From: a virus
Lineage: Duplodnaviria; Caudoviricetes
IMG/VR virus record: IMGVR_UViG_3300036790_000516
Span: 1 to 54,787 of that record
Strand: one strand, 5' to 3'
DNA length: 54,787 nucleotides
The notes under the pieces are model-generated. The model had not been told where the DNA came from. It saw only the letters and a list, made by a program, of their open reading frames with translations, and searched no databases. Shown here one piece after another: positions 1-37,643 of this stretch. The stretch's first letter is position 1. Every line of letters begins with the position of its first letter. A program made the position numbers and the translations under genes.

Positions 1-127
1 GTCGTCACCGCCCTCGACGGCGCTGGCGGCGAGACTCCGGCGTCGAACGAGGTCTTCGCCGCCGTCGACGCCAACTCCTCGATCACCATCTGCTGGAACG
101 TGGTCCCGAACGCCTGGGCCTATAACG
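1..127. repeat. Terminal overlap, copy 1 (identical to 54661-54787); marks a circularly closed contig
   Basis: Exact 127-nt identity, with an ORF running in frame through the junction. 127 is a common assembler k-mer. Confidence 0.97.
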
Positions 128-2490
128 TTTACCGCGGGCTGACCTCGGGCTCGGAGATGGTTCTGTCGGGCGTCGGGCTTCCCGTCCCGCAGCCAGCGCC
201 GCTGACCGCCCGCGTCTGTTTCACCGACGGCGGCGCGACCCCGTTCCCGCCCGGCGGCCTGCCCGTCGCCTCGGTCACCAACGAACCCTACGTGTTGATC
301 TCGCCGCCCGCGCTCGCCGGGTTCAATCCGACCGGCCGGGCGCTGGTGACCCTCGCCGGGGCGACCTCCGGCTCCTTCTACGTCGGCAAGTCGGTCGTCC
401 TCGAAGGCACCGGCAGCGCCTATTACAACGGGGTCGCGGCGTCGGTCGTCTCCATCGTCTCTTCGACGCAACTGGTCATTCAATCGGCGACGTGGTCGCC
501 GCCGTCGCGCCCCGGCTTCCAGGACACCGTCGGCGGCGACCTCCAGGACCCCGGCCCGGTCACCGATACCACCCAGCAGGTCGTCCTCTACAAGATGCCG
601 AACTCGCTGACGCTGCCGATCCCCTACACCGACGCGAACGTGGTAGCGCTGTTCCCGATGTGCCCGCCATCCCTCGGCGTCCCTCCATCGGGCGGCACCG
701 GCGGCCCGACCTCCCTCCCCGGCGCAACCGCCTCGGGCGGCATCGTTGGCATGACCTCGCGCATCCCTCAAATGGCCCAGTTCACCAACCGCGTCGCGAT
801 GGCCCTCGGCAACGGATTCGTGCCGCAGGTCTACTGGGACTCGACTGGATCGCCCGTTAATCCCGCCCCGACCGGCCCGATCACCGGCGTTTCGGTCGAC
901 GCCTACGGCGTGGTCACCGTTACCACCTCGACGTCCCTATCGGTCACCGACCCGACGTCCAAAGGCTTCCTGCCCGTCGGCACGAGCGTCGTCCTCGCGG
1001 GGATCGCCGATCCTCTCTACAACGGCGTTTTCGTGGTCATCTCGGTCGCCATCACGACCATGACCTCCTCGTTTACCGTGCGCAATCTGGCGGCAATCGG
1101 CGAGGCCCCGTCGAGCGGAGGCACCTGGACCGACGCCGCCACTCCCATCATCAACGTCTTCCTGCCCGCCTACCCGGCGTGGGCGGCATCGACGATCTAC
1201 GCCGTCAACGCGGTCGTGCAGCCGGACACGCCGAACGGCTTCTACTACACCTGCGTGTTCCCCGGCGAGTCGGGCCTTACCCAGCCGGCGTTCCCCACCA
1301 TCGTCGGCAATCAGATCGAGGACGGCACCGCCGTATGGCAGAACTCCGGCTCGACCGCCGGCCCCGCCCCGCCCGGCGCCGGCCACCTCTCCATCTACTC
1401 CGGCTCGCTGTGGCTCTGGAACACCTGGCCGACCGACTCGACCAACGGCATCGCCGGGCCGACCTCGATCCAGATGTCCGACGTCGACAATCCGTTTTCG
1501 TGGAACCCGGTCAACCAGGCGTTCATCGACAAGGACGACGGATCGGACGGCATGGGCCTGGCGACGTTCACGATCAGCGCCGAGGGCATCCCGCCCGAGG
1601 GCTCCCTGGTGGCGTTCAAAAACTTCGCCGGGTACCAGATCGTCGGCGTCTTTGGCTCCTCCAATTTCGCCATCCAGCGCATCCGCTCCGACATGGGCTG
1701 CTCGGCCCCCCGTACGATCCATTTCGTCCCTGGCTTCGGGATCATGCGCTACGCCCATCTCGGCATCGCCAATTTCGACGGCGTTCGCGATACGTTGATC
1801 AGCGAGGAGGTCCGCCCGTTCCTGTTCGCGTCGAACTCGCGACTGACCGCCGACATCGTCCCCATCGACCCCTACTGGCTGGCGATGTCCTGTTCCGATC
1901 TGACCGCGTCGCCCGCGATGTACGTCACCGCCATCCCGGTCGGCTCGAACTCCCTCGGCGCCCTCACGCGATTGCTGTGCTATGACATCGTCCTCAAATC
2001 CTGGGCCATCATCGACCTCCCGTTCCCGATCTCGACGATCTACCAGGCGCGCTCCTCGGAGGTCACCTCCCCGATCACCTTATTCGGCGGATTCAGCGAC
2101 GGGGTGCTGCAGCGCTGGCAGGCCAACGACCTCTTATGGCTGACCGGCGGCGGGGCGTCGGAGCTTCCCCGGGTCGTCGCCTGGTCGGTCACGCTCGCCG
2201 ACACCGAAGGGCGCACGCCCGACCAAAAGATGCAGTTCCGCCGCGTCACCGTTCGTGGTATATCTAACGGCGCCTCCTCCCTTTCCGTTACTCCCATCAT
2301 CAACGGGAGTCCCTTTACATTGCAGACCTATCCGATCCCCGCGAGCGGAGATTACGAAGTGTTCAGCGGCGTGTTCAAAAACGGCTGGCGGTTCGGCGCG
2401 CGGCTCTCGGGCGCCGGGCCAATTGAGATCGACCGGGTGGGATACCAGCTCGTCGATAAGGCGCTTGGGACGCCGGGGGTGATCTCGTGA
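1..2490 (+). CDS. Tail nozzle / head-closure protein (P22 gp10 / T7 gp12-like position), 3' part of a ~944-aa gene starting at 54316
   Basis: Frame open from base 1 and continuous with 54316-54660. Lies between adaptor and GNAT/ejection genes. Beta-rich C-half; inserted CBM-like segment WAASTIYAVNAVVQP...FYYTC...DGTAVW. Confidence 0.7.
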   Translation, partial: VVTALDGAGGETPASNEVFAAVDANSSITICWNVVPNAWAYNVYRGLTSGSEMVLSGVGLPVPQPAPLTARVCFTDGGATPFPPGGLPVASVTNEPYVLISPPALAGFNPTGRALVTLAGATSGSFYVGKSVVLEGTGSAYYNGVAASVVSIVSSTQLVIQSATWSPPSRPGFQDTVGGDLQDPGPVTDTTQQVVLYKMPNSLTLPIPYTDANVVALFPMCPPSLGVPPSGGTGGPTSLPGATASGGIVGMTSRIPQMAQFTNRVAMALGNGFVPQVYWDSTGSPVNPAPTGPITGVSVDAYGVVTVTTSTSLSVTDPTSKGFLPVGTSVVLAGIADPLYNGVFVVISVAITTMTSSFTVRNLAAIGEAPSSGGTWTDAATPIINVFLPAYPAWAASTIYAVNAVVQPDTPNGFYYTCVFPGESGLTQPAFPTIVGNQIEDGTAVWQNSGSTAGPAPPGAGHLSIYSGSLWLWNTWPTDSTNGIAGPTSIQMSDVDNPFSWNPVNQAFIDKDDGSDGMGLATFTISAEGIPPEGSLVAFKNFAGYQIVGVFGSSNFAIQRIRSDMGCSAPRTIHFVPGFGIMRYAHLGIANFDGVRDTLISEEVRPFLFASNSRLTADIVPIDPYWLAMSCSDLTASPAMYVTAIPVGSNSLGALTRLLCYDIVLKSWAIIDLPFPISTIYQARSSEVTSPITLFGGFSDGVLQRWQANDLLWLTGGGASELPRVVAWSVTLADTEGRTPDQKMQFRRVTVRGISNGASSLSVTPIINGSPFTLQTYPIPASGDYEVFSGVFKNGWRFGARLSGAGPIEIDRVGYQLVDKALGTPGVIS

Positions 2491-2888: not shown

Positions 2889-3178
2889 TGCCCGAGATAC
2901 TTGGGCTCATCCCAACGCTGCTCGGCCTCGGCAACTCCATCTCCGCCCAGCAGCATGCGAACATCCCGTCGCTGCTCCCGCCCGCAGCGTCGACGCCGGG
3001 CACGACGGCCACCGCGCCGCAGGTCACCGCCGCCGCCAATACCGACTACGCCACCAGCGGGTCGCAAGGCGGGGCGGCGCCGAATTTCCTGTCGTCGTTC
3101 TCGGCGCAGAATGGCGGCTCGCCGACGACGCCGTTGCCGTTCAACGCCGATACCTTGAAGGGGTACTTCAATGCCTGA
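2888..3178 (+). CDS. Small putative ejection (internal virion) protein
   Basis: ATG overlaps the previous stop; MPEILGLIPTLLGLG N-terminus; Ala/Thr/Gly-rich. Confidence 0.5.
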   Translation: MPEILGLIPTLLGLGNSISAQQHANIPSLLPPAASTPGTTATAPQVTAAANTDYATSGSQGGAAPNFLSSFSAQNGGSPTTPLPFNADTLKGYFNA

Positions 3179-3869: not shown

Positions 3870-3872
3870 CGC

Positions 3873-5108
3873 ATGGGAGCCTTCGCACAAGCCCTGCAAT
3901 CGCTCGGCGGCCTCGGCAACGACTTGGGGACCGCGCAGCAGAACGTCAAGACGCAGGCGTTTACCGACCAGTCGAACGCGATCAAGCTGCGGCTATTGCA
4001 ACTGGCGTTGTCACAGCAGGAGAAGCCGCCGGTCGATCCTCTCGCGCAGAAGATTGCGACGATCCAGGCCGGGCTGAAGCAGCTAGGATTGCCTCCCATG
4101 ACGCAGGATCAAGCGCTCCAGGTTCTAGGGCTTGCGCCGAAAGCGACTACGGATCGCCAGTTCCCTGTCGCTCCCGGAGGCGAGGTCTACGATACTGCTA
4201 CAAGGACGTTCTCGCAGCCAGTTCCCGAGCGGCCAATCAAGCCCACCGCCGCCACCGAGGCCAAGCCGGTATTTCCAACCGGCGGGGGGCCTGCTTACGG
4301 CGTCTCCCGCGTCAACAGCGCCGGACAACTCGCCATCATCAAGCCGGGCGACCCCGAGTTCACCGACGACGATAAAAAGCTGCTCGACTCGGTGAACGCG
4401 TCGCAGCAAAAGGGACAAGCGGACAAGGCTGCGGCTGCGGCGGCGGCGGCGGCTGCGCGGGAGAAAGCCTACGTAGACGCCTATGCAACGGCGCGAGGCA
4501 AGGTTCAGCAGTATTCGGTGATCGACAAGACCAACGGCCAGCCGGTGATGGTCAACGCCGAGACCATGAACGCGAATCCCGGCCGCTTCGCCGCTGGGAG
4601 CCTCGGCCAGCAGCTCAAGAATCGCGCGGGCGTGTTCGACGAGATCAATTACACGACGGGACAGTTCAATCGGGCGCTCAACGGCCTCACCGACGCGGAT
4701 TTCAAAACGCTGCCCCGCGCGCAAATCGCCATCGCGCTGCAAAGCCGCGATCCCAGTTCCGCAATGTCCGAGTTCATCGGCAGCGAGGCGGCATCGACGC
4801 TCTCGCCCGCGCAGATCGACTACGTCACCGGCCTCGTCTCGTTGCAGGAGTCGGCGATGTCGCTGCGGTCGATCGCTGGAATGGGTCAAGGGTCCGACAC
4901 GCTGCGGAACGCGATCACCGCGATGCTGCCGGGGCCGCAAACGCCGTCGAAGGACTATGCCAACCGGCAGATGAGACTGTTCCAGGGCGAGCTAGAAGCG
5001 CTGCGGCGGTCGGTCCCGGCGTCGTCGCAGCTCGGCATGAGCGGCCAAACAGGTAACGCCGCGGCACCGCCAGCCACCGGAGGCACGCGTACGATCGTGA
5101 TTCAATAA
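3873..5108 (+). CDS. Putative ejection protein
   Basis: GGAGG SD; Ala/Gln-rich helical composition with no Cys; synteny. Confidence 0.55.
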   Translation: MGAFAQALQSLGGLGNDLGTAQQNVKTQAFTDQSNAIKLRLLQLALSQQEKPPVDPLAQKIATIQAGLKQLGLPPMTQDQALQVLGLAPKATTDRQFPVAPGGEVYDTATRTFSQPVPERPIKPTAATEAKPVFPTGGGPAYGVSRVNSAGQLAIIKPGDPEFTDDDKKLLDSVNASQQKGQADKAAAAAAAAAAREKAYVDAYATARGKVQQYSVIDKTNGQPVMVNAETMNANPGRFAAGSLGQQLKNRAGVFDEINYTTGQFNRALNGLTDADFKTLPRAQIAIALQSRDPSSAMSEFIGSEAASTLSPAQIDYVTGLVSLQESAMSLRSIAGMGQGSDTLRNAITAMLPGPQTPSKDYANRQMRLFQGELEALRRSVPASSQLGMSGQTGNAAAPPATGGTRTIVIQ

Positions 5109-6271
5109 TGGCCAACGGAACCGATCGTGAGCAAGTGAATCTCAACGTAGGCGGCCAATCGTTCACGATTGATGCGCCGAAGGGACTGTCTGACGCCGAG
5201 GTGATCTCTAAGGCGATGGCGGCGGACCCTGGGTTTCGAGCGGCCTACGCCGACTTTCGTCGCGGCGCGCAGGCGCAGGCGGCCGCAAGGGCGGCAGGCG
5301 TATCGTCTCCCGGCGTCTCACAATCGCCGCTCAAGCCGCAGATGGAGCAGGCGGGCGCGAGGCATATCGCTAACGAGAAGGAGCTGGCTTACCGGCAATG
5401 GCGCGCGAGACAAAACCCTACGCCGATGACCGACGCGTCCAGCGTCTTACTCCCAGTAGCGGAACTCCCCGAGGCCGTCGCCGCTCTCTCCAGGATGAGC
5501 GCTGCCGATATAGCCCGAGGGGCAGGGCGGGGGCTGTTAAATTTCGCCAAGAAATCCGCTGGTGGCGCGGTCGTTGGCGGCGCGGCTGGAGGCGCGGTCG
5601 GGGGCAAGCGAGGTGCGGAACTCGGTGCCGCTGGAGGCGCTACTCTCGGGACCCTTATCCCCAATCGCGCCTACGCCAATCTCCCTCCTGCCATCGGCCA
5701 CTTTTTCCTCAGCGATGAGGATTACGCGATGGTCAAGGCGGCTCAGGAACTCGCCAAGATACAGGCCGAACTGAAGACGGACTTGCCGGCAGCGCAGGCG
5801 GCGAAAAAGCTGGCCAAGTTGCAGGCCGAGATCGCGGCGGGGCTCAAGGAATCTCCCGAGACCATAGCCGAGCCCGAGAAGGTCCCGTTTCGTCCTGGCA
5901 TGAAGGCGCAACTGAATCGCGGAACGGGAACTGCTTATGATCCCGTAGGGGGCTCGCGCGCCCCCGCATCGTCGTCGTCGAGGCCAATGATACGGCCGCC
6001 GCGAACAGGTGAGGCCTCTGAGTCCATGGCCGCAGGTTCCTCTGGCCTCCGTCCAACCGAGTCCGAGCAGCTCGCCACGTGGCTCAACAAGCAGACGGTA
6101 TGGACGCCGGAGATGGAGCGCGCCGCCGTTCGCGCTTGGGGCGACAAGGCTCGGATGCGCGCAGGCGAGGGCCTCGTCAACTATCGCGCGAGAATCCAAG
6201 GCTACGGCTACGCCGCCCGCGCCGCTCGCGGCATGAGCGACATCGAAAACAATCCGATCATTCGACCGTAA
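5108..6271 (+). CDS. Putative ejection protein
   Basis: GxxxG-rich hydrophobic segment GGAVVGGAAGGAVGG; coupled to the previous gene. Confidence 0.55.
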   Translation: MANGTDREQVNLNVGGQSFTIDAPKGLSDAEVISKAMAADPGFRAAYADFRRGAQAQAAARAAGVSSPGVSQSPLKPQMEQAGARHIANEKELAYRQWRARQNPTPMTDASSVLLPVAELPEAVAALSRMSAADIARGAGRGLLNFAKKSAGGAVVGGAAGGAVGGKRGAELGAAGGATLGTLIPNRAYANLPPAIGHFFLSDEDYAMVKAAQELAKIQAELKTDLPAAQAAKKLAKLQAEIAAGLKESPETIAEPEKVPFRPGMKAQLNRGTGTAYDPVGGSRAPASSSSRPMIRPPRTGEASESMAAGSSGLRPTESEQLATWLNKQTVWTPEMERAAVRAWGDKARMRAGEGLVNYRARIQGYGYAARAARGMSDIENNPIIRP

Positions 6272-6283
6272 AGGAGACAACGA

Positions 6284-6451
6284 ATGGCATTCCACAAAGG
6301 CGATCAACCTTCCGGCGAGGCCCCCGCGACCGCCGTCGGCGACGAGATGTCGCTGCCCGGCCGCGCGCTGGTCCGCAAAAAGGGACGGCATTTCGGCGGC
6401 AAGATGGCCAAACGGCATCACGGGAAGCGCAAGATGGGCAAGCGGGGATAG
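6284..6451 (+). CDS. 55-aa basic protein (not in ORF track)
   Basis: AAGGAG SD; MAFHKGDQ...KRHHGKRKMGKRG*. Confidence 0.7.
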   Translation: MAFHKGDQPSGEAPATAVGDEMSLPGRALVRKKGRHFGGKMAKRHHGKRKMGKRG

Positions 6452-6468
6452 CGGGACGGAGGACGGCG

Positions 6469-6663
6469 ATGCCGCTCGAACATTTTCGCAATAAAGAGGA
6501 CTATAGAAAGTGGACCGCTTATCGCCATATGCACGACATCCCCGCGCCGCATCTGAAACGGGTGAGCGTGGGCGGCAAGGTCCATACGGTCAAGCATTCC
6601 CGCGGACGCAGGACGTCGAAGCGGATGCCCCGTCCGGCGCGACGAAAGGGAGGACGCAAGTGA
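6469..6663 (+). CDS. 64-aa basic protein
   Basis: GGAGG SD; MPLEHFRN...RPARRKGGRK*. Confidence 0.7.
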   Translation: MPLEHFRNKEDYRKWTAYRHMHDIPAPHLKRVSVGGKVHTVKHSRGRRTSKRMPRPARRKGGRK

Positions 6664-6866
6664 GCACACTCGACGACAATCTCGCGAAACGCATGAAGGC
6701 GGCGATGGGCAGCGAACTCGACCCCGAACTGGCGACGCCGCTGACCGCGGGCTGCGAGGAGACTCCCGACCGCGAGGAGTTGTTCCCGCAGTTCTGCGAC
6801 CCGTTCAGGCAGACGAACATGAAGGGCAAGTACAGCCGCAACACGCGGCGGGAGCGGGAGGACTAA
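6660..6866 (+). CDS. Hypothetical protein (68 aa)
   Basis: GGGAGG SD; GTG start overlaps the previous stop (GTGA). Confidence 0.6.
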   Translation: MSTLDDNLAKRMKAAMGSELDPELATPLTAGCEETPDREELFPQFCDPFRQTNMKGKYSRNTRRERED

Positions 6867-6868
6867 CG

Positions 6869-8044
6869 ATGCGACGTTGGCTCATCGGCATCACCCTCGC
6901 CGTCATCGCCGTCGCCGCCTCGCCGCCCGCCCGCGCGCAGGTCCAGCAGGGCAGCCTGACGACCGCGGCGGCGGATTGCGGCAACCCTCCCGCGAACTCG
7001 ACCGGCGCCATCTTCGTCGCCGTCGGCAGCAGCGGCGGCGCGACGGTCACGGCATCGGGGACGTGGAGCGGCACCCTCTCGTTCTTCGGCACCGGCGACG
7101 GCGGCGTCACCTACACCGTCCTGACCAGTCTCAACAACTCCAACGTCTCGACGACGACCGGCAACGGGACGTGGCAGTTCAATCCCACCGCCTACTCGCA
7201 TATCTGCGTGGCGTTCACGACCGCGTCGTCGGGGACCGCTGTCGTCACGATCCGCCTGAGCACCAACTCAGCGGGTCATGGCGGCGGCGGGGGCGGCGGT
7301 GGAGGTGGCATCGGCGGCACCGTCTCCAGCCCGTTCCTGCCCTACGCGAGCGGCGCGGATGCGCTGAGCGATAGCGAGTTCAGCTATGACACCGCAAACG
7401 CGATGGCGTTTTGTTTCGCGGAGTACGACTCGAATGACCCGCCGTGCATCTGGGCGGAGGATATGGCTGTTGATTCCAGCGACAGTTCCATCGGGCTGTC
7501 TACAAATGGCGTTTCCGTTAACGACATCAACGATGGCGTCGAATCATGGTACGGCGGTGGAGTAGCCAGCGTTGGAAATGGGAGCATCACCCTATCGTAT
7601 GTTGGGGCCATCACGGCTGGCGTAAATGGCGGCTTCGGCGGCTCCCTCACCCTCAACGATGCCACCAGCGGCAGTCCGACCCTTACAGCGAACGCCGACT
7701 TCTTTGCGCTCACTCCAGATGATTCCGGCTCCTCCGGACTCGTCATGAACTCATCGACAGCATCGAGCATCGATATTATCGTCGAACCGGGAGGGGACTC
7801 CATCGCCCTGTCCAACTCGACGACCGACCCGGACGACAACATTGGGTTGCAGGCAGTCGCCGGAAGCGGGGCGACGCTGAATGTTACGGATTCGATGGGC
7901 GGATCGATCGCAATACAAAGCGCAGGAGGCATCGGAACCGTCGTCGCGCCGCAGCTGGCCGCCGCCTCTGGGCAAATCTTCGTATGCGTGGACACGACCG
8001 GCATGCTCGTGTCGTCGGCAACGGCTTGCGTTGGAACGAAATAA
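6869..8044 (+). CDS. Signal-peptide-bearing fibre/decoration-like protein
   Basis: Sec signal MRRWLIGITLAVIAVAASPPARA/Q. Beta-sandwich N-domain (GTWSGTLSFFGTGDGG), poly-Gly hinge, C-terminal FVCVDTTGML motif. Confidence 0.7.
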   Translation: MRRWLIGITLAVIAVAASPPARAQVQQGSLTTAAADCGNPPANSTGAIFVAVGSSGGATVTASGTWSGTLSFFGTGDGGVTYTVLTSLNNSNVSTTTGNGTWQFNPTAYSHICVAFTTASSGTAVVTIRLSTNSAGHGGGGGGGGGGIGGTVSSPFLPYASGADALSDSEFSYDTANAMAFCFAEYDSNDPPCIWAEDMAVDSSDSSIGLSTNGVSVNDINDGVESWYGGGVASVGNGSITLSYVGAITAGVNGGFGGSLTLNDATSGSPTLTANADFFALTPDDSGSSGLVMNSSTASSIDIIVEPGGDSIALSNSTTDPDDNIGLQAVAGSGATLNVTDSMGGSIAIQSAGGIGTVVAPQLAAASGQIFVCVDTTGMLVSSATACVGTK

Positions 8045-8057
8045 AAAGGAGACCTCG

Positions 8058-8462
8058 ATGAAACTTCGCATCTGGCTGCCCACGCTAATCCTCCCGCTGG
8101 CGCTCGCTGGACTTACGGCCGCGCAATCGCCGGCGCCAACGACCAAGCCGCCGATCGCTCCGCGTCCGCAAGCGGCTCCATTATCGGCCCCGACGCCAAA
8201 GCCGACGCCCGCGCCCGCCGTCGCCGCCGCCGTCCCCGTCCCGCCCGCGACGCTGGCGACGCTGACCCCTTTGCTAACCGCCCGCGCGAACTACCGCTCG
8301 CAGGTGCTGACCCTTCTCCAGAAGAACCGCGCCAACGAGATCGCCATCGGCAAGATCGAGACCAAAGCGCTGGCCGCCGCCGGCCTTGACTACCATAGCT
8401 CGATGCTGTCGGCGGACGGCAAGACGTTCGTCCCGCGGCAAGGACTGCCGCCGCGGCAATAG
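8058..8462 (+). CDS. Secreted Pro-rich/helical protein, possible fibre chaperone
   Basis: AAGGAG SD; signal MKLRIWLPTLILPLALAGLTAA/Q. Confidence 0.65.
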   Translation: MKLRIWLPTLILPLALAGLTAAQSPAPTTKPPIAPRPQAAPLSAPTPKPTPAPAVAAAVPVPPATLATLTPLLTARANYRSQVLTLLQKNRANEIAIGKIETKALAAAGLDYHSSMLSADGKTFVPRQGLPPRQ

Positions 8463-8465
8463 CCC

Positions 8466-11024
8466 ATGCGGACGCGGATCATCTTTGGGATCGTCGCTGT
8501 CTTGGCGGCACTGCTGCTGCCAGCGTCCGGTTTCTGCCAATTTACCAGCGTGCAGGCCCAGGTGAAAGACGCCAACGGTAAACTCTGGTCCAACTGCACC
8601 GTCAACGCGTCCTTCGTGCCATCGCCGTCGGCGACCACCCAGCCCCTGCTCAATGGGTCGACGTTCCAGACGACGGTCCCGGTCGTGCAATGCGACTCGA
8701 TGGCCAATCTCACCCTGACGCTGGCCGACAACAATCAGGTCCAGGACGGCCACACCGCCCCGCCCGCGTCCCAGTGGAATATCAACGTGGCCTCGGACTC
8801 GGTGTGCTTCGCGGGGCAGAAGTTCTACTTCAACGCGCGATTGACGATCACCGGCGGCTCACAGAACATCACCGCCGCGCTGACCGCCGACGCTCCGATC
8901 CTGCCGACCTGCGGCGGCGGCGGCGGCGGCGACTGTCCCGGCATGACCACCGCGAATCTCGCGCAGCTCTATAATCTCAGCGGCGCGTGCGCGGGCGAGA
9001 TCTGGCTTTACAACGCCCCCGACATCACGAACTTCATCGGCGCGTCCCCGGCCCCGTTCGGCCAGCCGGTAACGACGATGGACCCGGACTTTTACTCCAT
9101 CGACGACAACTGGACCGGGTGCGACGAGTGTTCGACGGGGACGCTGCGGTCAAACGACCTGCTGCTTCAGTACTATGGGACCGACAACGTGACGCTGGGC
9201 TCGTCGGTGGACGTGCAGGCCCTCGGGCAAATCGTAATGGCGGTCGGGTCCGGTTCCTTCGAGCAAGCGGCCTATAACACGAACTCGATCACCTTCACCG
9301 ACATTGCCGACGAGAACGCCGGTGCGCTCCTGGCTGCGAACTCCGTCGATACCATGCTGGGGACGCGGCTGCAAATGTACGCGGGGGATGGCAGCAACAA
9401 CTACGTCGAACTCCGCGGCCCCCCTACGCTCGCGGCGACCGGCGTCTACACCCTGCCCGACGCCCTCCCGGCGATGGATACCAGCTACTTTCTGACCAGC
9501 GACACCATGGGCATCATGTCGTGGGCGGTCGCAGGGGGCGGCGGCGGGGGAACCATCGGAGGCTCGATCGCCTCCGGCCAGCTCGCGTTCGGCGCCGCCA
9601 CCGCGAACGACATCGAAGGCACCGCCAACGCGACGCTGGACGCCTCCGGCGACATTGACCTCGCGGGCACCATCACCGGCGGCACGCTGGCGGGCGCGGG
9701 CACCGCCTGTCTGCACGTCAATAACGCAGGCGTGGTCAGTCCGGCCAGCGGCGACTGCGCGACCGGCGGTTCCGGCTCGGTGACAGAGGTCGATACGACG
9801 ACCCCGCTTGGCGGCGGCCCCATCACGACAACCGGGACGCTAACCTGCCCCACCTGCACGACCAACGCCGCCGCCCTCACCCTTCACGCCATCGTGCTGG
9901 GCGCGGGCGGGCAGGCAACGTCGGCGCTGGGCTCGCTTGGCACGTCTACGACGGTGCTGCACGGCGCGGCGGCCGGAGCCCCGTCCTTTAGCGCCGTCGG
10001 CCTGGCCACCGACGTAACCGGCCAACTCCCCATCGCCGCCGTCGGCAGCGCCGGACTGAGCGGGACCTCGCCGATCTCGATCGCATCGACCGGCGTGATC
10101 TCCTGCTCGACCTGTTCGGCGTCATCGGGAACGGTAACCAGCGTCGCCACGACCTCGCCGATCGCCGGCGGCACGATCACCTCGACCGGGACGCTTTCCT
10201 GCCCGACCTGCATCGTCGCCCCGGCGTCGCCATCGGCGGGCGTCGGCCATTTCGCAGGCTCGACCCAGACGATTACCTCCAGCGCCGTAACGCCGTCCGA
10301 CGCCGCCGGGAACACCTCCGGCTCGGGCAACTTCTGCCTGGTGACCTCCTGCGTGATGACCACGCCGAATCTGGGAACGCCGTCGGTGGTCACGCTTACC
10401 AACGGAACCAGCCTGTCGCTGGCGACCGGGGTCGCCGGCAACCTTGGCGTTACGCACCTGAACTCCGGCACCGGCGCAACCTCGTCGACGTTCTGGCGCG
10501 GCGACGGCTCCTGGGCCTCCCCGTCCGGCAGCGGCACGGTCAACTCCGGCACGCAGTTCGCGCTGGGCGTCTACGCCACCGGCGGGACGGCCATCTCCAG
10601 CGGGCCAACGCCGCCAGCGGCGAACGGGCAGTATTTCGTCGGCTACAACGTCACAGGCAGCGCGGCGGTTACGCCAGCGGCGATCCAGTCCGGTATGACG
10701 CCGACTTCGATCAATAGCGCCGCGACCGCCTACACCATCCTCTACAGCGACAACGAGCGAACCGTGCTGATCGACGTCGCCGCGAGCAACAGCGTCACCA
10801 TCACCCTGCCGACGCCGTCCTCCCTCGGCAACGCGACGTTCACCACGCGCATCGTGAATCACTCGGCGAACGCGGCGACCATCTCGGCGACGACGTTCGA
10901 CATTCAATCGGGCACGCACGGGGCGGGGTCGACGCTGACGCTGCCGTCGGGTCAGAGCTGCCAGTTGTACGTGGACTCGTTCAATTCGTCGACTTGGGAC
11001 GCCGATTGCGTGACGTTGCAATGA
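8466..11024 (+). CDS. Tail-fibre-like protein with N-terminal signal peptide
   Basis: Signal [25 protein letters not shown]. Prealbumin-like N-domain (VKDANGK), poly-Gly hinges, VTSV...CPTC repeats, TFWRGDGSW motif, fibre-type C-domain (AYTILYSD...TITLP). Confidence 0.75.
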
Positions 11025-11635
11025 GAATCGCCGTCCTAGCCGCCCTCGTTATCGCCGTCGCGGCCTCGGCCGGAGCGCAGCCGCCGCCGGCCTTGGCGAC
11101 GCCGCTGGCGCTGACCGCCGTCCCCACCCCCGTCCCCACCCCGCACAGCACGATGTTGACGTGGACCGCCGGACCGCCCGTCGCTGGCGTCACCGTCGCC
11201 GGATTCAACGTCTACCGGTCGGCGACCGCAGGCGGCGAGTCCGGCACGACGCCGATCAATGGCGCGACCCCGATCCCTCCGTCGGCGACCGCCTTCACCG
11301 ACGCCACCGTCGTCGCCGGAGCAACCTCTTTCTACATCGTCGAGGCCCAATCGGCCACCGGCGCGCTTTCCCCGCCGTCGAACGAGATCCGCATCCTGAC
11401 GCCCGGCCTGACCATCACCACCGCGACCGCGACGCCCAAGGGCGCCAACACGATCTACCAGGCGTCCTGGACCGACACGCAGACGAACTCCACCTTCTAC
11501 GCGTTATTCGGCAGCGGGCGAATCGTCGCTTGGGGCGCCAATGTTTTCCATGTGTCGTGGACCGGGGCGACGCTGGCCAATCCGTACCTATCGGTGTGCG
11601 ATTCGGCGGGAAATTGCGAGACGGCCCAGCCGTGA
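11021..11635 (+). CDS. Secreted fibronectin type III domain protein
   Basis: Signal [20 protein letters not shown]; LTW...GFNVYRS...FTDATV...FYIVEA...SPPSNE. Confidence 0.8.
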
Positions 11636-11674
11636 AAGACGTTACAGGGGTTAACATCATCGCGGAGGGCAGTT

Positions 11675-11956
11675 TTGCGCGCATGGGTCGATACGATCAC
11701 GTTTGGCGACATCCTGATAATGGCGACGTTTATCGTTACGGCGATTCTCTCGTGGAGTAATCTCAACTGGCGGGTGACGATCATCGAAACCTGGAAGGAC
11801 GCCTACTATCACAGCGCCGAGAGGCAGGACACCAATATCAACCTGCTGCGGGAGAACGCCGCCAAGCTGACCGCGATCATCGAGGGCCAGGAGCGGCGGC
11901 TGATCCTGCTGGAAGACCGGCAACCCTATCCCGGCCAGCACCGGGCGGGCATCTGA
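11675..11956 (+). CDS. Single-TM plus coiled-coil protein (holin/antiholin-like)
   Basis: TM segment ILIMATFIVTAILSW followed by a heptad-like region; start codon uncertain. Confidence 0.55.
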   Translation: MRAWVDTITFGDILIMATFIVTAILSWSNLNWRVTIIETWKDAYYHSAERQDTNINLLRENAAKLTAIIEGQERRLILLEDRQPYPGQHRAGI

Positions 11957-11983
11957 GATCGAGGACGCAAAAGGAGCGATGGC

Positions 11984-12385
11984 ATGGATGTTTCCAACGT
12001 CGTTATGACCCAGTTCACGTCGAGCGCGGTCGTCGTCTACCTGATGCAGAAGGTTAAGACGGCGAAATGGTTCCCTCTGGTGCAGCAGGGACGTGCGACC
12101 GTGAATCGAATGGTCAGCATCGTCGCGGCGTTCCTGGTCGCGGTCGGCGTCTCGTGGACCTGGTCGCTCGACCAGAGCACCGGGACGCACACGCTGGTCA
12201 TCACCGGCCTGTCGGTCTACGCGCTGCTGCACGGCGCCTGGCACTGGCTCAACCAGTTCGCGCTGCAGGAGACCGTGTACCAGGCGACCGTCAACAAGGT
12301 GTCAGTGACCACCGACGCGACCGACTCGATTCCTGTTAGAGTAGCGCCCGGTGGGGCAGTCGTCGTGCCGGAGGCTAAAGCATGA
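11984..12385 (+). CDS. Holin-like membrane protein
   Basis: AAGGAG SD; 2-3 hydrophobic segments. Confidence 0.6.
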   Translation: MDVSNVVMTQFTSSAVVVYLMQKVKTAKWFPLVQQGRATVNRMVSIVAAFLVAVGVSWTWSLDQSTGTHTLVITGLSVYALLHGAWHWLNQFALQETVYQATVNKVSVTTDATDSIPVRVAPGGAVVVPEAKA

Positions 12386-12549
12386 TCTTCCAACGACCCG
12401 TACCGGGCACGCTGAACCTGATCCTCGTGGTCTTCGCCCTGGTAATGTTCGCCATCGCGGGTTTCGGCTGGCCCGCTCAGATCGAGCCGTATCGCGTAAA
12501 GTTTATCGGCGTGGGACTGTTCTTCCTGACGCTTGCAATGCTGTTCTAA
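12382..12549 (+). CDS. 55-aa two-TM membrane protein (not in ORF track)
   Basis: GGAGG SD, ATGA coupling; MIFQRPVPGTLNLILVVFALVMFAIAGFGW...FIGVGLFFLTLAMLF*. Confidence 0.7.
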   Translation: MIFQRPVPGTLNLILVVFALVMFAIAGFGWPAQIEPYRVKFIGVGLFFLTLAMLF

Positions 12550-12559
12550 AGGGGACTCA

Positions 12560-13195
12560 ATGAACCGACGCACCTTTCTTAACCGTGCGGCCCGCCTAGT
12601 GGCCGCCATCGCTGTCCTTGGCGTCTCCCTGACGCTGACCGGCTGCTCGGCGCTCACCGACCTTCTCAACTGGATTCCGGTCGGCCTGCAGGCGATCTCC
12701 TCGATCCTGTCCCTGCTGTCCGGCGCGGGCGTGGTCGTCGGCCCGGCGATCTCGACGATCATCGGGCTGATCCAGGTCGGCCTGGCCGATCTGCGTCTGG
12801 CCATCGTCGAGTATCAATCGACCGTCCCGCCGCCCGCCGGAGCCCTCGCCAAGATCGACACGTTCCTCGCCGATCTGGTGTCGAACATTGGCAACGTCCT
12901 CCAGCAGCTCCCGACCGGCCCGGCGAGCATCATCACGCTGGTCGTCGGCCTGTTCGAGCTGGTGCTGTCGACGATTGAGGGCTTTTTGATGCAGATTCCG
13001 GCCGCCGCCGCTGGAGCCCTCCCTAAAACGGATGCGGTGTTCAAGCGCGGGATGACGGTCAACGGGGTCGCGGTCTCGATCGGGCCGCGCAAGAACCTGA
13101 CCCGGCGCGCCTTTATCCGCGACTACAATCGACTCGTTGACGCGGGCGGGCAGCCAGGGGCCGCGTTGCCTGAGTCGCTGGCGCAGCATCTATGA
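12560..13195 (+). CDS. Tat-type lipoprotein with amphipathic helices
   Basis: MNRRTFL twin-arginine motif and lipobox LTG/C. Confidence 0.75.
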   Translation: MNRRTFLNRAARLVAAIAVLGVSLTLTGCSALTDLLNWIPVGLQAISSILSLLSGAGVVVGPAISTIIGLIQVGLADLRLAIVEYQSTVPPPAGALAKIDTFLADLVSNIGNVLQQLPTGPASIITLVVGLFELVLSTIEGFLMQIPAAAAGALPKTDAVFKRGMTVNGVAVSIGPRKNLTRRAFIRDYNRLVDAGGQPGAALPESLAQHL

Positions 13196-13890
13196 GCCGG
13201 CGGCGCGGAGCCCGGCCCTCCCCCCGGCACACTCTCGCAGCGGCATCGCCTCATCGCATTCTAGGCGCGACGCCAACGCGGTTCATCCGGCGGCCGGCGA
13301 ACCTGTCCATGTGGCTCAACGACGTGGACGGGGATTGCGTCACCGCCGAGGAGGCGTTCGCCAAGGGGATCGCGCCCGGCGTTTTCATCGGCGACGCCAC
13401 GGTTAGAGTCTGGGCGGCGGCCAACGACGTTCTGAATGGTACCGACCTCATCACCGTTCTCAAATTGATGCAGACGACGGGATTCGCGCAGAACGGGAGT
13501 GTCTACGACGACGGTTCGCCCGTGTCCGTCGATTGGACCAACGTTTCGGTTCTCCAAAACGCCATCGTTCAAGGCCCCGTCAAGATCGGGGTCGCTGGCG
13601 ATCAACTGGAGACCGCCGTACCGGACCCTCCAACGAACGGATGGCTGGCGACCGGTTTCACGCCCGACGCCAACCTCGATCATTGCGTGTCCCTGTGCGG
13701 ATACGGGCCGATCTGGTGGCTGCTGAACGTACTGGGGACGGGAGCGAACCCCGGACCCGTCCAGGAGGCCCCCGGCTACGCGCTGTTCACCTGGAACTCC
13801 ATCGGCGTGATCGACGCGCCCTCGCTCAACGCGATTTGCGGCGAGGCGTGGTTGCGCAGCCCGACAACGCTTTGGACCTCAAAGCGGTGA
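13192..13890 (+). CDS. Papain-like (C1-type) cysteine peptidase
   Basis: NDVDGDC (catalytic Cys), DHCVSLCGY (His), downstream TW motif. Confidence 0.65.
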   Translation: MSRRRGARPSPRHTLAAASPHRILGATPTRFIRRPANLSMWLNDVDGDCVTAEEAFAKGIAPGVFIGDATVRVWAAANDVLNGTDLITVLKLMQTTGFAQNGSVYDDGSPVSVDWTNVSVLQNAIVQGPVKIGVAGDQLETAVPDPPTNGWLATGFTPDANLDHCVSLCGYGPIWWLLNVLGTGANPGPVQEAPGYALFTWNSIGVIDAPSLNAICGEAWLRSPTTLWTSKR

Positions 13891-13915
13891 CGGCGCGACG
13901 CCCGCGTAGTAGAAT
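13887..13915 (+). promoter_or_regulatory. Possible sigma70 promoter
   Basis: GTGACG-17 nt-TAGAAT upstream of 13933. Confidence 0.4.
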
Positions 13916-13932
13916 CCGCGCGAGGTACGGCG

Positions 13933-14487
13933 ATGGCTTTTCGCAAGGACCACGATCAGGGATTGCATCATCTCGAAGAAAAGGTCAACCGTCTTGAGGA
14001 GCGCGTCGATTCAGACGAGCGTCTCAATCATCGCAGGTTCGCGGAACTGGACGCGCGGGTCACAGCGCTAGAGGCCGCGGCCAGCGATGTCCGGTTCATC
14101 ACAATCGTTCAAAACGTCCCCAATGGAGGCTCCACCATGGCTAAGCAGCGCAGATTCGCGGCAGTCGCAACGGTAGGCGTCAACGCAGGCTCGATCGGCA
14201 ACTTTTCGGCAATCCCGTCCCCGGCGGCTTCGGCCTTTGCGACCCCGCCGGTCTTCTCATCCGACAATCCGCTCGCGGTCGTGAGCATCGATACGACCGA
14301 TCCCACCGGCGCGACGGTCAACGTCGCCGTCGATCCCACCGCTACCGGCAGCTTCAACCTGTCGGCAACCTATGCCAATCCCGACGGGGTCGTAGCGACC
14401 GCCGGAACGCTGAACGTCCCGATTCTCGCCGGTCCGCCGCCGCCTCCGGTCGACGTGACCTCCATCACGATTCAGCAGAACTCCTAA
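13933..14487 (+). CDS. Coiled-coil plus Ig-like domain protein with probable internal start at 14137
   Basis: Heptad N-terminus; in-frame GGAGG-N7-ATG at 14125-14139; Ig-like segment PVFSSDNP...FNLSAT. Confidence 0.7.
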   Translation: MAFRKDHDQGLHHLEEKVNRLEERVDSDERLNHRRFAELDARVTALEAAASDVRFITIVQNVPNGGSTMAKQRRFAAVATVGVNAGSIGNFSAIPSPAASAFATPPVFSSDNPLAVVSIDTTDPTGATVNVAVDPTATGSFNLSATYANPDGVVATAGTLNVPILAGPPPPPVDVTSITIQQNS

Positions 14488-14522
14488 CCGTTTTAACCGT
14501 CTGGGCAGGGAGGGCAAGCGGC

Positions 14523-17327
14523 ATGGTTCGACGATTGCGCTGGATGATCCTATCGCTTGCCCTTTTCCTTCCCTCGCCCGCCCACGCCCAGACCGCCACC
14601 GTGACCTGGGGCACGACGTACCAAACGATCCAAGGCTTCGGCGCCGGAAACAACTATATCGGCGCGGCCATGAATCCCTACGACAGCCTTCTCATCGGGA
14701 CGCTGGGGTACTCCTCGCTGCGAATGAGCATCCCCCTGGGGACCAGCTGCAACTCGGTTTCCTCGGGCTGCGCGACCGGCCAAGACAGCGTAACCGATGC
14801 TCAGGCGATGGTGGCCTCGGGCGGCCAGGTCTGGGCCTATAACAACCAATGCACCATCGCCAATTACACGACCTACGCCACACAGGCGTCAAACTTCATC
14901 GCCAGCCTCGCCAATTTCGAAAGCGTTTCCCTGGCCTCGGTCAGCGTACTGAACGAGCCGGACATCGGCAGCTGCGTGCAGGGCGTCGTGGCGTCGGGTT
15001 CCGACGTTGACACCATCGTCCGAAACTTCGGCAGCGCCCTGTCGTCCGCCGGGCAAAGCACCCTGATCATGATGCCGGAGTCGTCCCTCTACAGTTCGCT
15101 GACCGGCGTGGCGGGAACCTGCGCGGGAGACTCCGGCTGCTTTAACCTGGTTGGAGTCGTCGCCTACCATGGGTACGACGCGCCCTCCTCGCCTGCCGAT
15201 CCTTATGGCAATCCGCCCGTGATGTGGGAGACGGAAGCTTCTGCGGGTCCCGGCTACGGTCCGAATGCCCCTGGCTGTTCCGGCGGCCAGTGGTGTCCGA
15301 CGATTGCCGATGCCCTCATGTGGGCAGGACTTGTGGACGACGCCATGGCCGCCGGCAACAGCGCCTACCATTACTTCTGGTTTGTGGACCCCGACAACGG
15401 TTTCGACGGCTGCAACACCTGCAATTTTGCGCTGATCAATCCCACGGAAAGCACGCCCATTTCGATTCGCGCCTATGCAATCGCGCAGTGGGCCAAGTTC
15501 GTGCGGCCGGGTTGGGTGCGCATCGACGTTACCCACAATCCACTGAGCGGAGTGACCTGCACGGCCTTCAAGGACCCCGGGGGCAGCGGAAAGTTCGCCA
15601 TCGTCTGCCCGAACCAAAACGGTTCGAGCCGGGGGATCGCGTACAATTTTTCCGGATTCACAGCCGCGTCCGTGACGCCCTACATAACCGACTCGACCAG
15701 GACGGTCACCGCGCAGACGCCGATCGCCGCCGGAAGTTCGTTCTCCGCAACGCTTGCGGCGGATAGCGTGACGACATTCTTTGGCACCAGCGGCGCTCCG
15801 CCTCCGCCGACGACCACTTTCTACGCATCGACGTCCAGCGGAAGCGACTCGAACGCCGGAACCAGGACGAGCCCCTGGTATCACATCCCAGGCATGACTG
15901 GCGTCACGGGCGTTCCGGCTGCGCACACCGTCGCGGCTGGTGACAGCTACATCCTCAAGGGTGGCGATACCTGGCCTGCCGCGGCCTTCCCGATGCAGCA
16001 GGTGTTTACGGGCAGCAGCTCCAGCACGTCGCCCGTCGGTTGCACCGGGTCGGGCTGCATTTACATCGGCGTGGACCAAACGTGGTTCACCGGAGGCTCG
16101 TGGACGAGGCCAATCTTTAACGGCGGCAACACGCAAGTCGGAACCTATCCGGGCGGAATTCAGAGCGTGGTCGACCTCTATGGCGGCTACTTCGTCCTCG
16201 ACAACATCGAGTTCACCGGCTGGTGGCAGACCGTCAACACGGCGACCACCTGGTCGATCATCAGCATTCGCGCGAGCCAAACCGAGGTAAGGAACAACTA
16301 CATTCACGGCTGGGGGCACGGCGGCACGGCCACGGAGGACAATGCGAGGTTCATCAGCAGCGGCGCGAGCTGCCCGCCTGACATGACCAGCGAGATTGAC
16401 AGCAACGCGATCGACGGTGCCGATACCACGATGGACATGGGCTTTGGCATGGGCGTCGCGGAAGGCTACGTCTATAACAACTATGTCGCGGACACCGTGA
16501 CGCTGATGTTCGGAACCGCTCGCTACTGGTTCGGCAACACGCTGATCGACTCCGGCCCCGACGCGTTCGACCCCGGCTCCCATGGAAATGTGATCGAATC
16601 CGCCGGCTGCCAGATGATCGCGTTCAATAACTACAGCAACGGGGCATACCTCGGGTCGAGCTTCTTCAACACGCCGGTGGACGGCAGCGTCGACTATGAC
16701 TTCAACAACGTGCTGGTCAACCAGGACGGCGTGCAGGCGATTCAGGTGGACGGAGATGGCCTCTCGACGGGCGCTGGATCGGGAATCTACATTTTCAACA
16801 ACATCCTGCAAGAAGGCGCGGCTCAGGGTGGCAATCCGATCAGCCTTCCCACGCGCGGCGGCACGCTGCCGTTCGCCACCATCTACAACAATTTCATGAT
16901 CGCGACAAACGCCACGGTCAACCCAGGCAGCCACACAACGACCATCACGCAATCGAACCAACTGGGCGTCACCAATGCAGCAGCGGCATCGGACGGGTAC
17001 ACGTTCAGCGGAGCCTATCCATTCCTCTCCCCACGTTCATCCTCGCCGACGGTTGCGACGGGCCAGACGGCATCCACCATGAACGCCATTTGTTCCGGGA
17101 TTCCTTCCACAGCGCTGGCTCCAGCAGCAACAGCCTGCCGGAGCGATTCGGCTGTCGGCGTGGGCTACAGAACCACAAACCACACGGTGATCGTCCCGAA
17201 CCGCACGGCGCTTCTGAGGCCCGGTAGCGGCCCGTGGGACATTGGCGCATATCAATTTTCGAGTACGCCGCCGCCGCCGCCGTCGGCGCCGCCGCCCCCG
17301 ACGGGGCTCAAGGGAGTGCCGTTCTGA
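14523..17327 (+). CDS. Secreted GH30-like glycoside hydrolase fused to a parallel beta-helix domain
   Basis: Signal ...PAHA/Q. GH30 motifs YQTIQGFG, LNEPD (acid/base), AYHGY, WETE (nucleophile), QWAKFVRPGWVRI. Second domain FYAS..GSDSNAGT..SPW...GDSYILKGG; ends DIGAYQ...PPTGL. Confidence 0.85.
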   Translation: MVRRLRWMILSLALFLPSPAHAQTATVTWGTTYQTIQGFGAGNNYIGAAMNPYDSLLIGTLGYSSLRMSIPLGTSCNSVSSGCATGQDSVTDAQAMVASGGQVWAYNNQCTIANYTTYATQASNFIASLANFESVSLASVSVLNEPDIGSCVQGVVASGSDVDTIVRNFGSALSSAGQSTLIMMPESSLYSSLTGVAGTCAGDSGCFNLVGVVAYHGYDAPSSPADPYGNPPVMWETEASAGPGYGPNAPGCSGGQWCPTIADALMWAGLVDDAMAAGNSAYHYFWFVDPDNGFDGCNTCNFALINPTESTPISIRAYAIAQWAKFVRPGWVRIDVTHNPLSGVTCTAFKDPGGSGKFAIVCPNQNGSSRGIAYNFSGFTAASVTPYITDSTRTVTAQTPIAAGSSFSATLAADSVTTFFGTSGAPPPPTTTFYASTSSGSDSNAGTRTSPWYHIPGMTGVTGVPAAHTVAAGDSYILKGGDTWPAAAFPMQQVFTGSSSSTSPVGCTGSGCIYIGVDQTWFTGGSWTRPIFNGGNTQVGTYPGGIQSVVDLYGGYFVLDNIEFTGWWQTVNTATTWSIISIRASQTEVRNNYIHGWGHGGTATEDNARFISSGASCPPDMTSEIDSNAIDGADTTMDMGFGMGVAEGYVYNNYVADTVTLMFGTARYWFGNTLIDSGPDAFDPGSHGNVIESAGCQMIAFNNYSNGAYLGSSFFNTPVDGSVDYDFNNVLVNQDGVQAIQVDGDGLSTGAGSGIYIFNNILQEGAAQGGNPISLPTRGGTLPFATIYNNFMIATNATVNPGSHTTTITQSNQLGVTNAAAASDGYTFSGAYPFLSPRSSSPTVATGQTASTMNAICSGIPSTALAPAATACRSDSAVGVGYRTTNHTVIVPNRTALLRPGSGPWDIGAYQFSSTPPPPPSAPPPPTGLKGVPF

Positions 17328-17351: not shown

Positions 17352-17777
17352 ATGCCCTGGACCTACCAAATCGTCAACGGAGGGATGCGCTGGCCCGCCG
17401 GGAATCTCCTCGCGCAAGGGTATAGCGGCGCGCCAGGGGCAGTGAACAATCCCGCGATGATCGCCGTCGCCGATTACGGGCCGATCCCGGTCGGCGCGTG
17501 GGAGATCGGCGCGCCCTATGACGACGCCGAGACCGGACCGTTTACGCTGCCGCTCACGCCGACCGCTACGACCGAGACGTTCGGGCGAACCGGATTCAAG
17601 ATCCACGGGGACGACATCGCGCTGGCGGGACTGGAGAGGGCGTCAAAAGGATGCATCGTGCTCGGGAGGTTCGCGCGGGAGGCGATCTGGGCGAACGAGG
17701 ACCGGCGGCTGAACGTCGTAGCGGCGTCGGCGCTGGAGACGACGATGCCCGCGCTACCGGTCGAGGAGATAACTTAG
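17352..17777 (+). CDS. Tlde1/DUF2778 (L,D-transpeptidase fold) protein, candidate endolysin
   Basis: GYSG, GPIP.G.W, GR.GF.IHGD and ASKGCI motifs (His...S.GC). Confidence 0.8.
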   Translation: MPWTYQIVNGGMRWPAGNLLAQGYSGAPGAVNNPAMIAVADYGPIPVGAWEIGAPYDDAETGPFTLPLTPTATTETFGRTGFKIHGDDIALAGLERASKGCIVLGRFAREAIWANEDRRLNVVAASALETTMPALPVEEIT

Positions 17778-37445: not shown

Positions 37446-37643
37446 CTACCTCCCGCAGCTGATAATCAGCGCGTCCAGCCCGTTCAGCTTGGGATAGGTC
37501 GTCGGGTCGGCGCCGTTCTCGCAGCTGACCGCCACCTCGCTGATGCTCAGCCGCGACACCTTGTACAAGGCCTTCGCCGTCGTTGCCTTCGCCAGCATCG
37601 CCACGACCAGTACGGTTAACGCCACCGCCGCCAGAATACGCAT
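37446..37643 (-). CDS. Small secreted/membrane-anchored protein with Cys pair
   Basis: GGAGG SD; MRILAAVALTVLVVAMLAKA. Confidence 0.6.
   Translation of the reverse strand: MRILAAVALTVLVVAMLAKATTAKALYKVSRLSISEVAVSCENGADPTTYPKLNGLDALIISCGR

Follow-up and report, generated by a model that had tools for sequence, protein, structure and literature searches.

The window, as we refer to the whole 54,787-nucleotide stretch of IMG/VR record IMGVR_UViG_3300036790_000516, is a complete virus genome of 54.8 kb with direct terminal repeats of 127 bp, ~64% GC and a single tRNA-Gly. No sheath, tube or tape-measure gene was seen in the window, hence the virus is regarded as podovirus-like. The subject of this study is its fibre slot, located at positions 6869-17327. 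The gene order resembles that of T7, in which the internal core genes precede the fibre gene, the fibre-slot genes of the window being placed after those for internal proteins. Within this slot, five proteins (starting at 6869, 8058, 8466, 11021 and 14523; Table 1) begin with signals of the general secretory (Sec) type that are predicted to be cleaved before Gln, and one (12560) with a twin-arginine translocation (Tat) lipoprotein signal, all of them present as an earlier, sequence-only reading had described. That reading had furthermore taken the whole tail-fibre module to bear signals, which is overstated, as a lysis cassette (11675-12549) and three leaderless genes lie inside the stretch, and the genes at 13192 and 13933 have no signal. 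Here we show that the leaders are conserved among relatives and that paired cysteines accompany them, and we conclude that the tail-fibre-type proteins of this phage and its relatives very probably fold outside the cytoplasm.

Every Sec-type signal shows the n-h-c anatomy, with 1-3 Arg or Lys residues, an uncharged core of 10-15 residues and small residues at -3 and -1, and Gln occupies position +1 in five out of five. In terms of sequence pattern, this matches the Q-rule for Bacteroidetes signal peptidase I substrates, where cleavage exposes Gln (Bochtler 2018, PMC5837995). The product of 12560 reads NRRTFLN followed by L-T-G-C at residues 26-29, which fits the pattern of a Tat signal (RRxFL) with lipobox. 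Two other interpretations were rejected: a lipoprotein reading of GFC/Q in the 852-aa protein, since Phe at -1 misfits a lipobox and relatives do not have a Cys there, and prepilin-type signals, as no G/F-type motif is found. Could the hydrophobic N-termini be an artefact of start calling, or occur by chance? Our gene calls were made from lists of open reading frames (ORFs), and GC-rich DNA yields many spurious ones. However, the starts at 6869, 8058, 12560 and 14523 are preceded by GGAGG-type ribosome-binding sites (for 8058, AAGGAG at 7 nt upstream), and two others are suggestive of translational coupling, the 8466 start lying 3 nt past the preceding stop and the 11021 start overlapping it as ATGA. 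A start further downstream in 8466 is unlikely, because it would cut into the conserved domain that begins at Gln25. Moreover, a crude n-h-c rule applied to the 53 called ORFs flags just two small ORFs outside the region, so the clustering of signals goes beyond chance. Considering also that relatives in independent assemblies keep their leaders, and that the conserved domain directly abuts the leader, an artefact is very improbable indeed. Signal-like N-termini do also occur in two minus-strand early ORFs, 39144-39560 (MKTTIIAAMMFAALAVWA...), the product of which has 4 Cys, and 37446-37643 (MRILAAVALTVLVVAMLAKA...).

The conservation of the leader is best documented for the N-terminal domain (N-domain) of the 852-aa fibre-type protein. 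When 1.84 billion representatives were searched with a profile built from the mature domain, 2137 proteins scored at E <= 0.001, and 1000 of them had E <= 1e-10. Among the best 150 of these 2137, 134 have a hydrophobic leader and 16 a short prefix, the domain mostly starting at residue ~19-30. For 153 stored members, this amounts to 137 with a leader, nine that start directly at the domain, and seven that are truncated or unclear, while a stricter n-h-c rule is passed by 132 of the 153. A word search identified seven relatives of 524-1297 aa, all with leader and Gln and with unrelated C-parts; across relatives 524-2247 aa long whose C-parts are unrelated, the N-domain itself is 47-62% identical. 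As such, the expectation that homologues keep the signals is borne out, both in four kin phages and in the N-domain family. Among the leaderless members, P0124 is encoded on a contig of 48.7 kb and P0151 on one of 55.6 kb. A search of viral contigs with the leaderless member P0124 led to another leader-bearing fibre (L107) and to an unrelated gene (L108).

These relatives also bear on the idea that the N-termini are uncleaved membrane tethers, either signal anchors or of the signal-arrest-release (SAR) type, that hold the fibres until lysis or aid infection. The cores, 10-15 residues rich in Ala, Leu and Gly, would allow for this, and SAR endolysins provide a precedent for phages using releasable N-terminal anchors. 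However, small residues at -3 and -1 and Gln at +1 are found in all five window signals, and the junction reads [AGSCT]-Gln in 134 of the 137 leader-bearing members. Leader sequences vary from member to member, whereas the mature N-terminus is conserved, and in the predicted model the first mature residues form the first strand, so that no linker would be left. Furthermore, the nine leaderless members have their start right at the position of the predicted cut, with M, MS, MSG or MAGG immediately ahead of the first strand. Gln is absent from eight of these nine, and is therefore part of the cleavage site rather than of the fold; both the predicted site and the tie of Gln to export gain support from this. 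Taken together, uncleaved tethers appear improbable.

If the leaders lead to export, disulfide bonds may form in the mature proteins, and the distribution of cysteines is consistent with this. At alignment columns 20 and 52 (mature residues 20 and 52), the 137 leader-bearing members have both cysteines in 92 cases, neither in 45 and a single one in none, whereas the nine leaderless members have both in none, neither in four and a single one in five (Fisher p 8e-5 for 'both' and 2.4e-7 for 'one only', for sequences that are related). That a single Cys is not seen once in 137 members fits the disulfide prediction. Columns 85 and 96 are occupied by both, neither or one in 80, 55 and 2 leader-bearing members, compared to 1, 8 and 0 leaderless ones. 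The number of mature cysteines is even in 116 of the 137 leader-bearing members (p 4e-17 vs one half) and in 4 of the 9 leaderless, and the Cys content is 2.0% vs 0.9%. The mature parts encoded in the window had been described as rich in paired Cys, and indeed the counts are even in all four signal proteins that contain any (6, 20, 2 and 18); leader proteins of the window have 1.91% Cys as against 1.04% for the others, of which 10 of 24 have an even number. In fibre ORFs that share the FWRGDGSW domain and are unflagged by the leader rule (n=61), Cys content is only 0.16%, and the one CxxC case among them (L034) has a leader at its real start. An unrelated phage contig (L107, 3220-15199) encodes a leader-bearing fibre of 1751 aa with 32 Cys, and the adjacent internal-type protein of 2179 aa has none. 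The cysteine statistics in window and N-domain family thus argue for disulfide bonding outside the cytoplasm, as the sequence-only reading had proposed. Both the covariation of Cys pairs with the leader and the existence of leaderless family members are newly found here. On the strength of four independent lines, namely signal anatomy, the Gln(+1) rule, leader conservation and the cysteine evidence, we consider actual export of the signal-bearing proteins, including those of fibre type, highly likely.

Are these exported proteins the tail fibres? The 852-aa protein possesses the features that had been ascribed to it: Gly runs, three CxxC-ended repeats (G-x-[LIV]-[ST]-C-x-x-C at 457, 543 and 575), an RGDGSW motif, a conserved N-domain and a fibre-type C-terminal region. 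Sixteen of its 20 mature cysteines lie in the shaft and tip, in near-neighbour pairs, and its C-terminal region (~residues 590-715) is common to 207 viral-contig stretches, in fibre-like genes. No match was found for the protein in Pfam, PHROG or, as for the nozzle-like and 415-aa late proteins, by sequence searches of the PDB. Its N-domain was modelled by AlphaFold2 (AF2) with a mean predicted local distance difference test score (pLDDT) of 90.8. The model is a confident, seven-stranded beta-sandwich of the transthyretin- or carboxypeptidase-regulatory-like type, a common fold that by itself proves no function, with VIA Z 8.6 and a root-mean-square deviation of 2.3 A over 79 residues to the transthyretin-like domain of carboxypeptidase D (5aq0_B). 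The best neighbours in BFVD are phage proteins, annotated tail fibres included; Foldseek did not return a PDB match at E <= 0.001, and no sequence or confident fold match of the fibres to solved fibre anchors was found. The 391-aa protein, which we refer to as class B, has 6 Cys and matches no Pfam or PHROG family. In its relatives P0156, P0157 and P0159 the leader, Gln and N-domain are retained and the sequence beyond the Gly hinge differs. P0158 has in common with the 391-aa protein only the hinge-proximal part, and with the 852-aa fibre the segment after the hinge, a sign of module shuffling. No close relatives were found when viral contigs were searched with the 934-aa, 411-aa or 391-aa protein alone, and Pfam and PHROGs gave nothing usable for the ten proteins of the module. 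Altogether, the sequence supports a tail-fibre architecture for the 852-aa protein, with conserved N-domain, hinges and a mosaic C-terminus, one domain of which is also frequent in ordinary phage fibres.

The same slot was compared in kin phages. L083 (G001) and L084 (G002) share 81-83% capsid and 53-54% portal identity with the window; for these two and L098 (G005), identity is 47-54% in the 415-aa protein and 48-53% in the nozzle-like protein, and L090 is syntenic with the window. Between internal-protein and lysis genes, L083 has four leader-bearing ORFs (133, 767, 2247 and >1231 aa, all with Gln), L098 five (794, 67, 917, 246 and 204 aa, all with Gln), L090 five (130, 943, 2151, 493 and >825 aa, all with Gln) and L084 two, of ~2480 aa with Gln and of 572 aa with a leader ending ASA/T. 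Where slot genes lack a leader they are short: conserved proteins of 76-92 aa and, in L084, one protein of 96 aa plus an ORF of 198 aa, the status of which is uncertain. Unrelated phages, namely L038 (a complete 70-kb record), L041 and L060, likewise have successive leader-bearing genes in the fibre slot. The claim that a signal-less fibre gene is missing agrees with our results, since none was recognised in the window, with the reservation that the 415-aa and 944-aa late proteins are unassigned. Judging from architecture, gene position and the domain shared with other fibres, and with no other candidate in sight, the chances that the two fibre classes are virion fibres seem to us evenly balanced.

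Not every signal protein in the slot calls for such an explanation. The 934-aa protein had been counted among the fibre module, and is better viewed as an ordinary secreted enzyme of glycoside hydrolase family 30 (GH30), the cellular relatives of which share its leader type. The GH30 call is based on a structural match to a GH30 cluster of the Atlas (391 residues, TM 0.81 by target); the protein itself stays below the Pfam cut-off (PF17189, 17.4 bits vs 22). Many of its 38 relatives contain PF02055/PF17189 and bear the name endo-xylanase or O-glycosyl hydrolase; leaders ending AQ/T are found in the closest ones. Its beta-helix is 36% identical to the signal-bearing 572-aa protein of L084. Most simply, this sequence would be a captured, bacterial-type secreted GH30 plus beta-helix protein that needs no special explanation. 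Many leaders of the GH30 relatives P0161-P0192, some of them in NCBI records, end in Ala-Gln; Gln at +1 may thus be widespread among the as yet unnamed bacterial sources of these enzymes, and the Atlas neighbours hint at Acidobacteriota or Bacteroidota. A link between glutaminyl cyclase and signal peptides in Acidobacteria was not found in the literature.

Tailed-phage fibres with a particle-binding N-domain, such as T7 gp17 and P22 gp9, have no leader and are assembled in the cytoplasm. The proteins described here are alike in gene position, in a conserved N-domain with mosaic distal parts, and in a shared C-terminal domain, and differ in having a Sec signal that looks cleavable, with Gln at +1, and numerous paired cysteines. 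Papers describing exported or signal-bearing tail fibres or tailspikes of tailed phages were not found in the literature (supplements excluded), and target proteins of phage diversity-generating retroelements lack signal peptides, according to PMC6199706. It is worth considering that the fibre-like proteins are exported without ever joining a particle, and act in the envelope, at the surface of the infected cell or in free form after lysis. Their function might be the masking or destruction of receptors, for superinfection exclusion or to keep progeny from re-adsorbing to debris, or else adhesion or remodelling of glycans. Host recognition would in that case fall to the leaderless nozzle-like protein or to the 415-aa one. 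The evidence for export applies equally to such a scenario, to which the 934-aa enzyme and the presence of two late proteins without an assigned role also lend themselves.

Precedents for exported fibre-like proteins do exist in bacteria. As described by Caulton et al. (2024, PMC10769870), the mosaic adhesive trimer (MAT) fibres of Bdellovibrio bacteriovorus are Sec-exported, trimeric, phage-fibre-like proteins, one of which was made full-length with a PelB leader; phage-like fibres can thus trimerise after Sec export. Like the fibres of the window, they combine a signal with an invariant, beta-rich N-domain of ~130 aa directly behind it, and they have swappable tips, some of these with disulfides, and reside on the cell surface. 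This likeness is one of architecture only. However, MAT fibres are encoded by chromosomal genes of a predator and serve on its own surface, whereas the window genes are located in the late operon of virulent-looking phages. Likewise, WceF of Pantoea stewartii is an exported tailspike-like beta-helix trimer that acts on polysaccharide and keeps a head-binding-like domain (PMC7949094). It is the closest analogue of the 934-aa enzyme, and of a non-virion role, and differs in being a host gene with a Tat signal that is not phage-borne and not a GH30 fusion. Finally, phages of Porphyromonas gingivalis encode Q-rule proteins of unknown function (Szczesniak 2023, PMC10653852; Matrishin 2023, PMC10367356), which are thought to modify the host envelope (PMC10367356). 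These have not been linked to tail parts, and the window and its kin have 55-65% GC, with a host that is not shown to belong to the Bacteroidota.

Several observations argue against a purely non-virion role. In five kin phages the fibre slot is filled by fibre-mosaic proteins of 850 to ~2500 aa with a C-domain of fibre type, and no alternative candidate for a fibre came to light. The nine leaderless members cannot be envelope factors acting before lysis. Furthermore, lysogenic conversion is unlikely, as there is no integrase among the ORFs scanned and the phage encodes its own family A polymerase, helicase and uracil-DNA glycosylase (UDG). Motif-limited scans of 185,579 species genomes did not reveal the close N-domain subfamily in any of them (0 of 76 and 0 of 24 pattern matches confirmed), which is weak evidence of absence. 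All considered, we regard a role exclusively outside the particle as a substantial minority possibility.

How, then, would exported fibres end up on a virion? We propose that the 391-, 852-, 134-, 204- and 934-aa proteins are substrates of the host Sec system that would cross the inner membrane unfolded. Signal peptidase I would cut before Gln, which could cyclise to pyroglutamate as in Q-rule bacteria, after which the proteins would fold and form disulfide bonds outside the cytoplasm. Heads and tails would meanwhile assemble in the cytoplasm, giving fibreless particles. The 391- and 852-aa proteins, as the probable host-recognition fibres of the phage, would dock on these by their conserved N-domains once lesions made by the adjacent holins have joined the cytoplasm with the periplasm, or afterwards in the lysate, and the 934-aa GH30/beta-helix enzyme would act as a free secreted glycan depolymerase. 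Since the endolysin candidates carry no leader, opening of the inner membrane must be the work of the holins, and would allow particles and fibres to meet; the time and place of attachment, and thus docking at lysis, we infer from this topology. Export with fibre maturation outside the cytoplasm and docking at lysis is, in our opinion, the best overall explanation, put forward tentatively. That the exported fibres are indeed incorporated in the virion, export and incorporation taken jointly, is likewise plausible at somewhat less than even chances.

We must however take into account a number of points that weigh against this explanation. The signal claims are built on residue patterns, and a host with the Q-rule and disulfide machinery is assumed. 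Binding to the host could also be a task of the 415-aa and 944-aa late proteins themselves. WceF (PMC7949094) and the MAT fibres demonstrate that exported tailspike- or fibre-like proteins with non-virion roles exist. The phage records, 50,697 in number, yielded a single weak match and no cultured relative, and for the modelled N-domain, Z values of 7-8.6 may reflect a common arrangement only. The leaderless members show that the N-domain fold does not need export. In addition, the family counts are drawn from related sequences, so that their p-values overstate independence.

The remaining genes of the slot and the surrounding late genes are listed in Table 1. In four kin loci, the C-terminal part of the small leaderless protein at 6510..6866 has a conserved counterpart immediately ahead of a fibre-slot gene with a signal (BLASTP 38-49% identity; L083 9708-9941, L084 9697-9930, L098 9654-9932, L090 3317-3547). 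The 134-aa protein has no family match in Pfam or PHROG and is possibly a periplasmic helper. On sequence grounds, the three small membrane proteins at 11675-12549 are those of a lysis cassette: by position and N-terminal motif, the first has a counterpart in a small membrane protein of L084 (19424-19660), and the second is 39% identical to L084 19016-19408, which adjoins a SleB-like wall-hydrolase gene. For the lipoprotein at 12560 the kin loci contain no relative, and only a weak PHROG match was obtained; the product of 13933 is 36% identical to L098 18993-19451.

Table 1. Features of the fibre slot and of the late genes in the window. A slash in a sequence marks the predicted cleavage site.
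Feature	Position	Strand	Remarks
133-aa protein	2487-2888	+	directly after nozzle-like gene; 44-49% identity in three kin
Three Gly/Ala/Gln-rich proteins, internal-protein kind	3171-6271		late genes
Small leaderless protein	6510..6866	+	C-terminal ~50 residues conserved
391-aa fibre-like protein, class B	6869..8044	+	predicted signal residues 1-23, ARA/Q (MRRWLIGITLAVIAVAASPPARA/QVQQG); ~110-aa N-domain; Gly10 hinge; variable C-part
134-aa exported-type protein	8058..8462	+	predicted signal TAA/Q (MKLRIWLPTLILPLALAGLTAA/QSPAP); Pro-rich linker; small helical C-domain; no Cys
852-aa fibre, predicted signal peptide	8466..8537	+	24-residue leader, GFC/Q, then /QFTSV
852-aa fibre, class A N-domain	8538..8915	+	~125-aa transthyretin-like beta-sandwich (model) from mature N-terminus
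852-aa fibre, shaft and tip	8916..11024	+	Gly hinges; CxxC-ended repeats; FWRGDGSW-containing domain ~residues 590-715
204-aa exported-type protein	11021..11635	+	predicted signal AGA/Q, 19-residue leader then /QPPPA; Pro-rich linker; FN3-like segment; 2 Cys near C-terminus
93-aa protein, holin- or i-spanin-like	11675..11956	+	lysis cassette; N-terminal membrane helix, coiled-coil-like tail (hydropathy)
133-aa membrane protein, holin-like	11984..12385	+	
55-aa protein, holin/antiholin-like	12382..12549	+	two membrane helices
211-aa predicted Tat-exported lipoprotein	12560..13195	+	MNRRTFLNRAARLVAAIAVLGVSLTLTG/C; RRxFL and L-T-G-C lipobox; mature part rich in amphipathic/hydrophobic helices
232-aa protein	13192..13890	+	no signal; no Pfam/PHROG family match
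184-aa protein	13933..14487	+	no signal; coiled-coil N-part (weak matches), beta-rich C-part
934-aa secreted-type enzyme	14523..17327	+	predicted signal AHA/Q (MVRRLRWMILSLALFLPSPAHA/QTATV); GH30 TIM barrel and beta-sandwich ~23-430; right-handed beta-helix ~430-930; 18 Cys
141-aa Tlde1/YkuD-like protein, candidate endolysin	17352..17777	+	leaderless; PF10908 E 8.3e-10; phrog_24118 E 1.6e-30
Large terminase, interrupted by intein	42024-44843	+	Pfam Intein_splicing, Hint_2, LAGLIDADG_3
Portal, SU10/P22-like	46421-47932		
Capsid protein, SU10-like	51495-52478		
415-aa late protein, adaptor-like by position	53052-54299	+	leaderless; between capsid and nozzle-like genes
944-aa nozzle-like virion protein	54316 wrapping to 2490	+	leaderless; 3' part = 1..2490; crosses 127-bp terminal repeat

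For the adaptor-like 415-aa protein a weak match to a PHROG annotated as 'tail protein' was seen, and its AF2 model, with a pLDDT of 35, was not used. Within the nozzle-like gene, the terminal repeat (54661-54787 and 1-127) encodes an FN3-like motif, YYYVVTALDGAGGETPASNEV, and a motif resembling it recurs in the exported 204-aa protein. The position equivalent to that of the 133-aa protein following the nozzle-like gene is also occupied by a protein in L107. Just upstream of the fibre genes lie small, very basic proteins with an RRGG/RKGGR-like tail (6284-6663 in the window, L084:8607-8804 and L107:9750-9947), which may be DNA-associated or internal virion peptides. Elsewhere, the terminase intein includes a LAGLIDADG-type endonuclease region, a free-standing LAGLIDADG/HNH-like gene (45872-46420) comes after the terminase gene, and the early region holds a lone TadE-like pseudopilin gene (35140-35490 on the minus strand; PF07811, E 5.3e-6).

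Tail fibres set the host range of phages and are the parts engineered most often. We find it possible, while keeping some reserve, that the last step of virion assembly takes place outside the cytoplasm, along a split route, in the large uncultured phage lineage to which the more than 2000 distinct N-domain proteins belong. If true, this would be a step so far undescribed for tailed phages, and a broad exception to the textbook rule of particle completion in the cytoplasm. Recombinant production of these fibres would in that case need periplasmic expression, and host prediction could make use of the leader type, e.g. the Gln(+1) rule. Furthermore, if lysis set free fibreless particles alongside unattached fibres, burst size and adsorption of these phages would have to be interpreted differently. 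The link between leader and paired cysteines provides a simple sequence test that sorts fibres by folding compartment in any phage genome.

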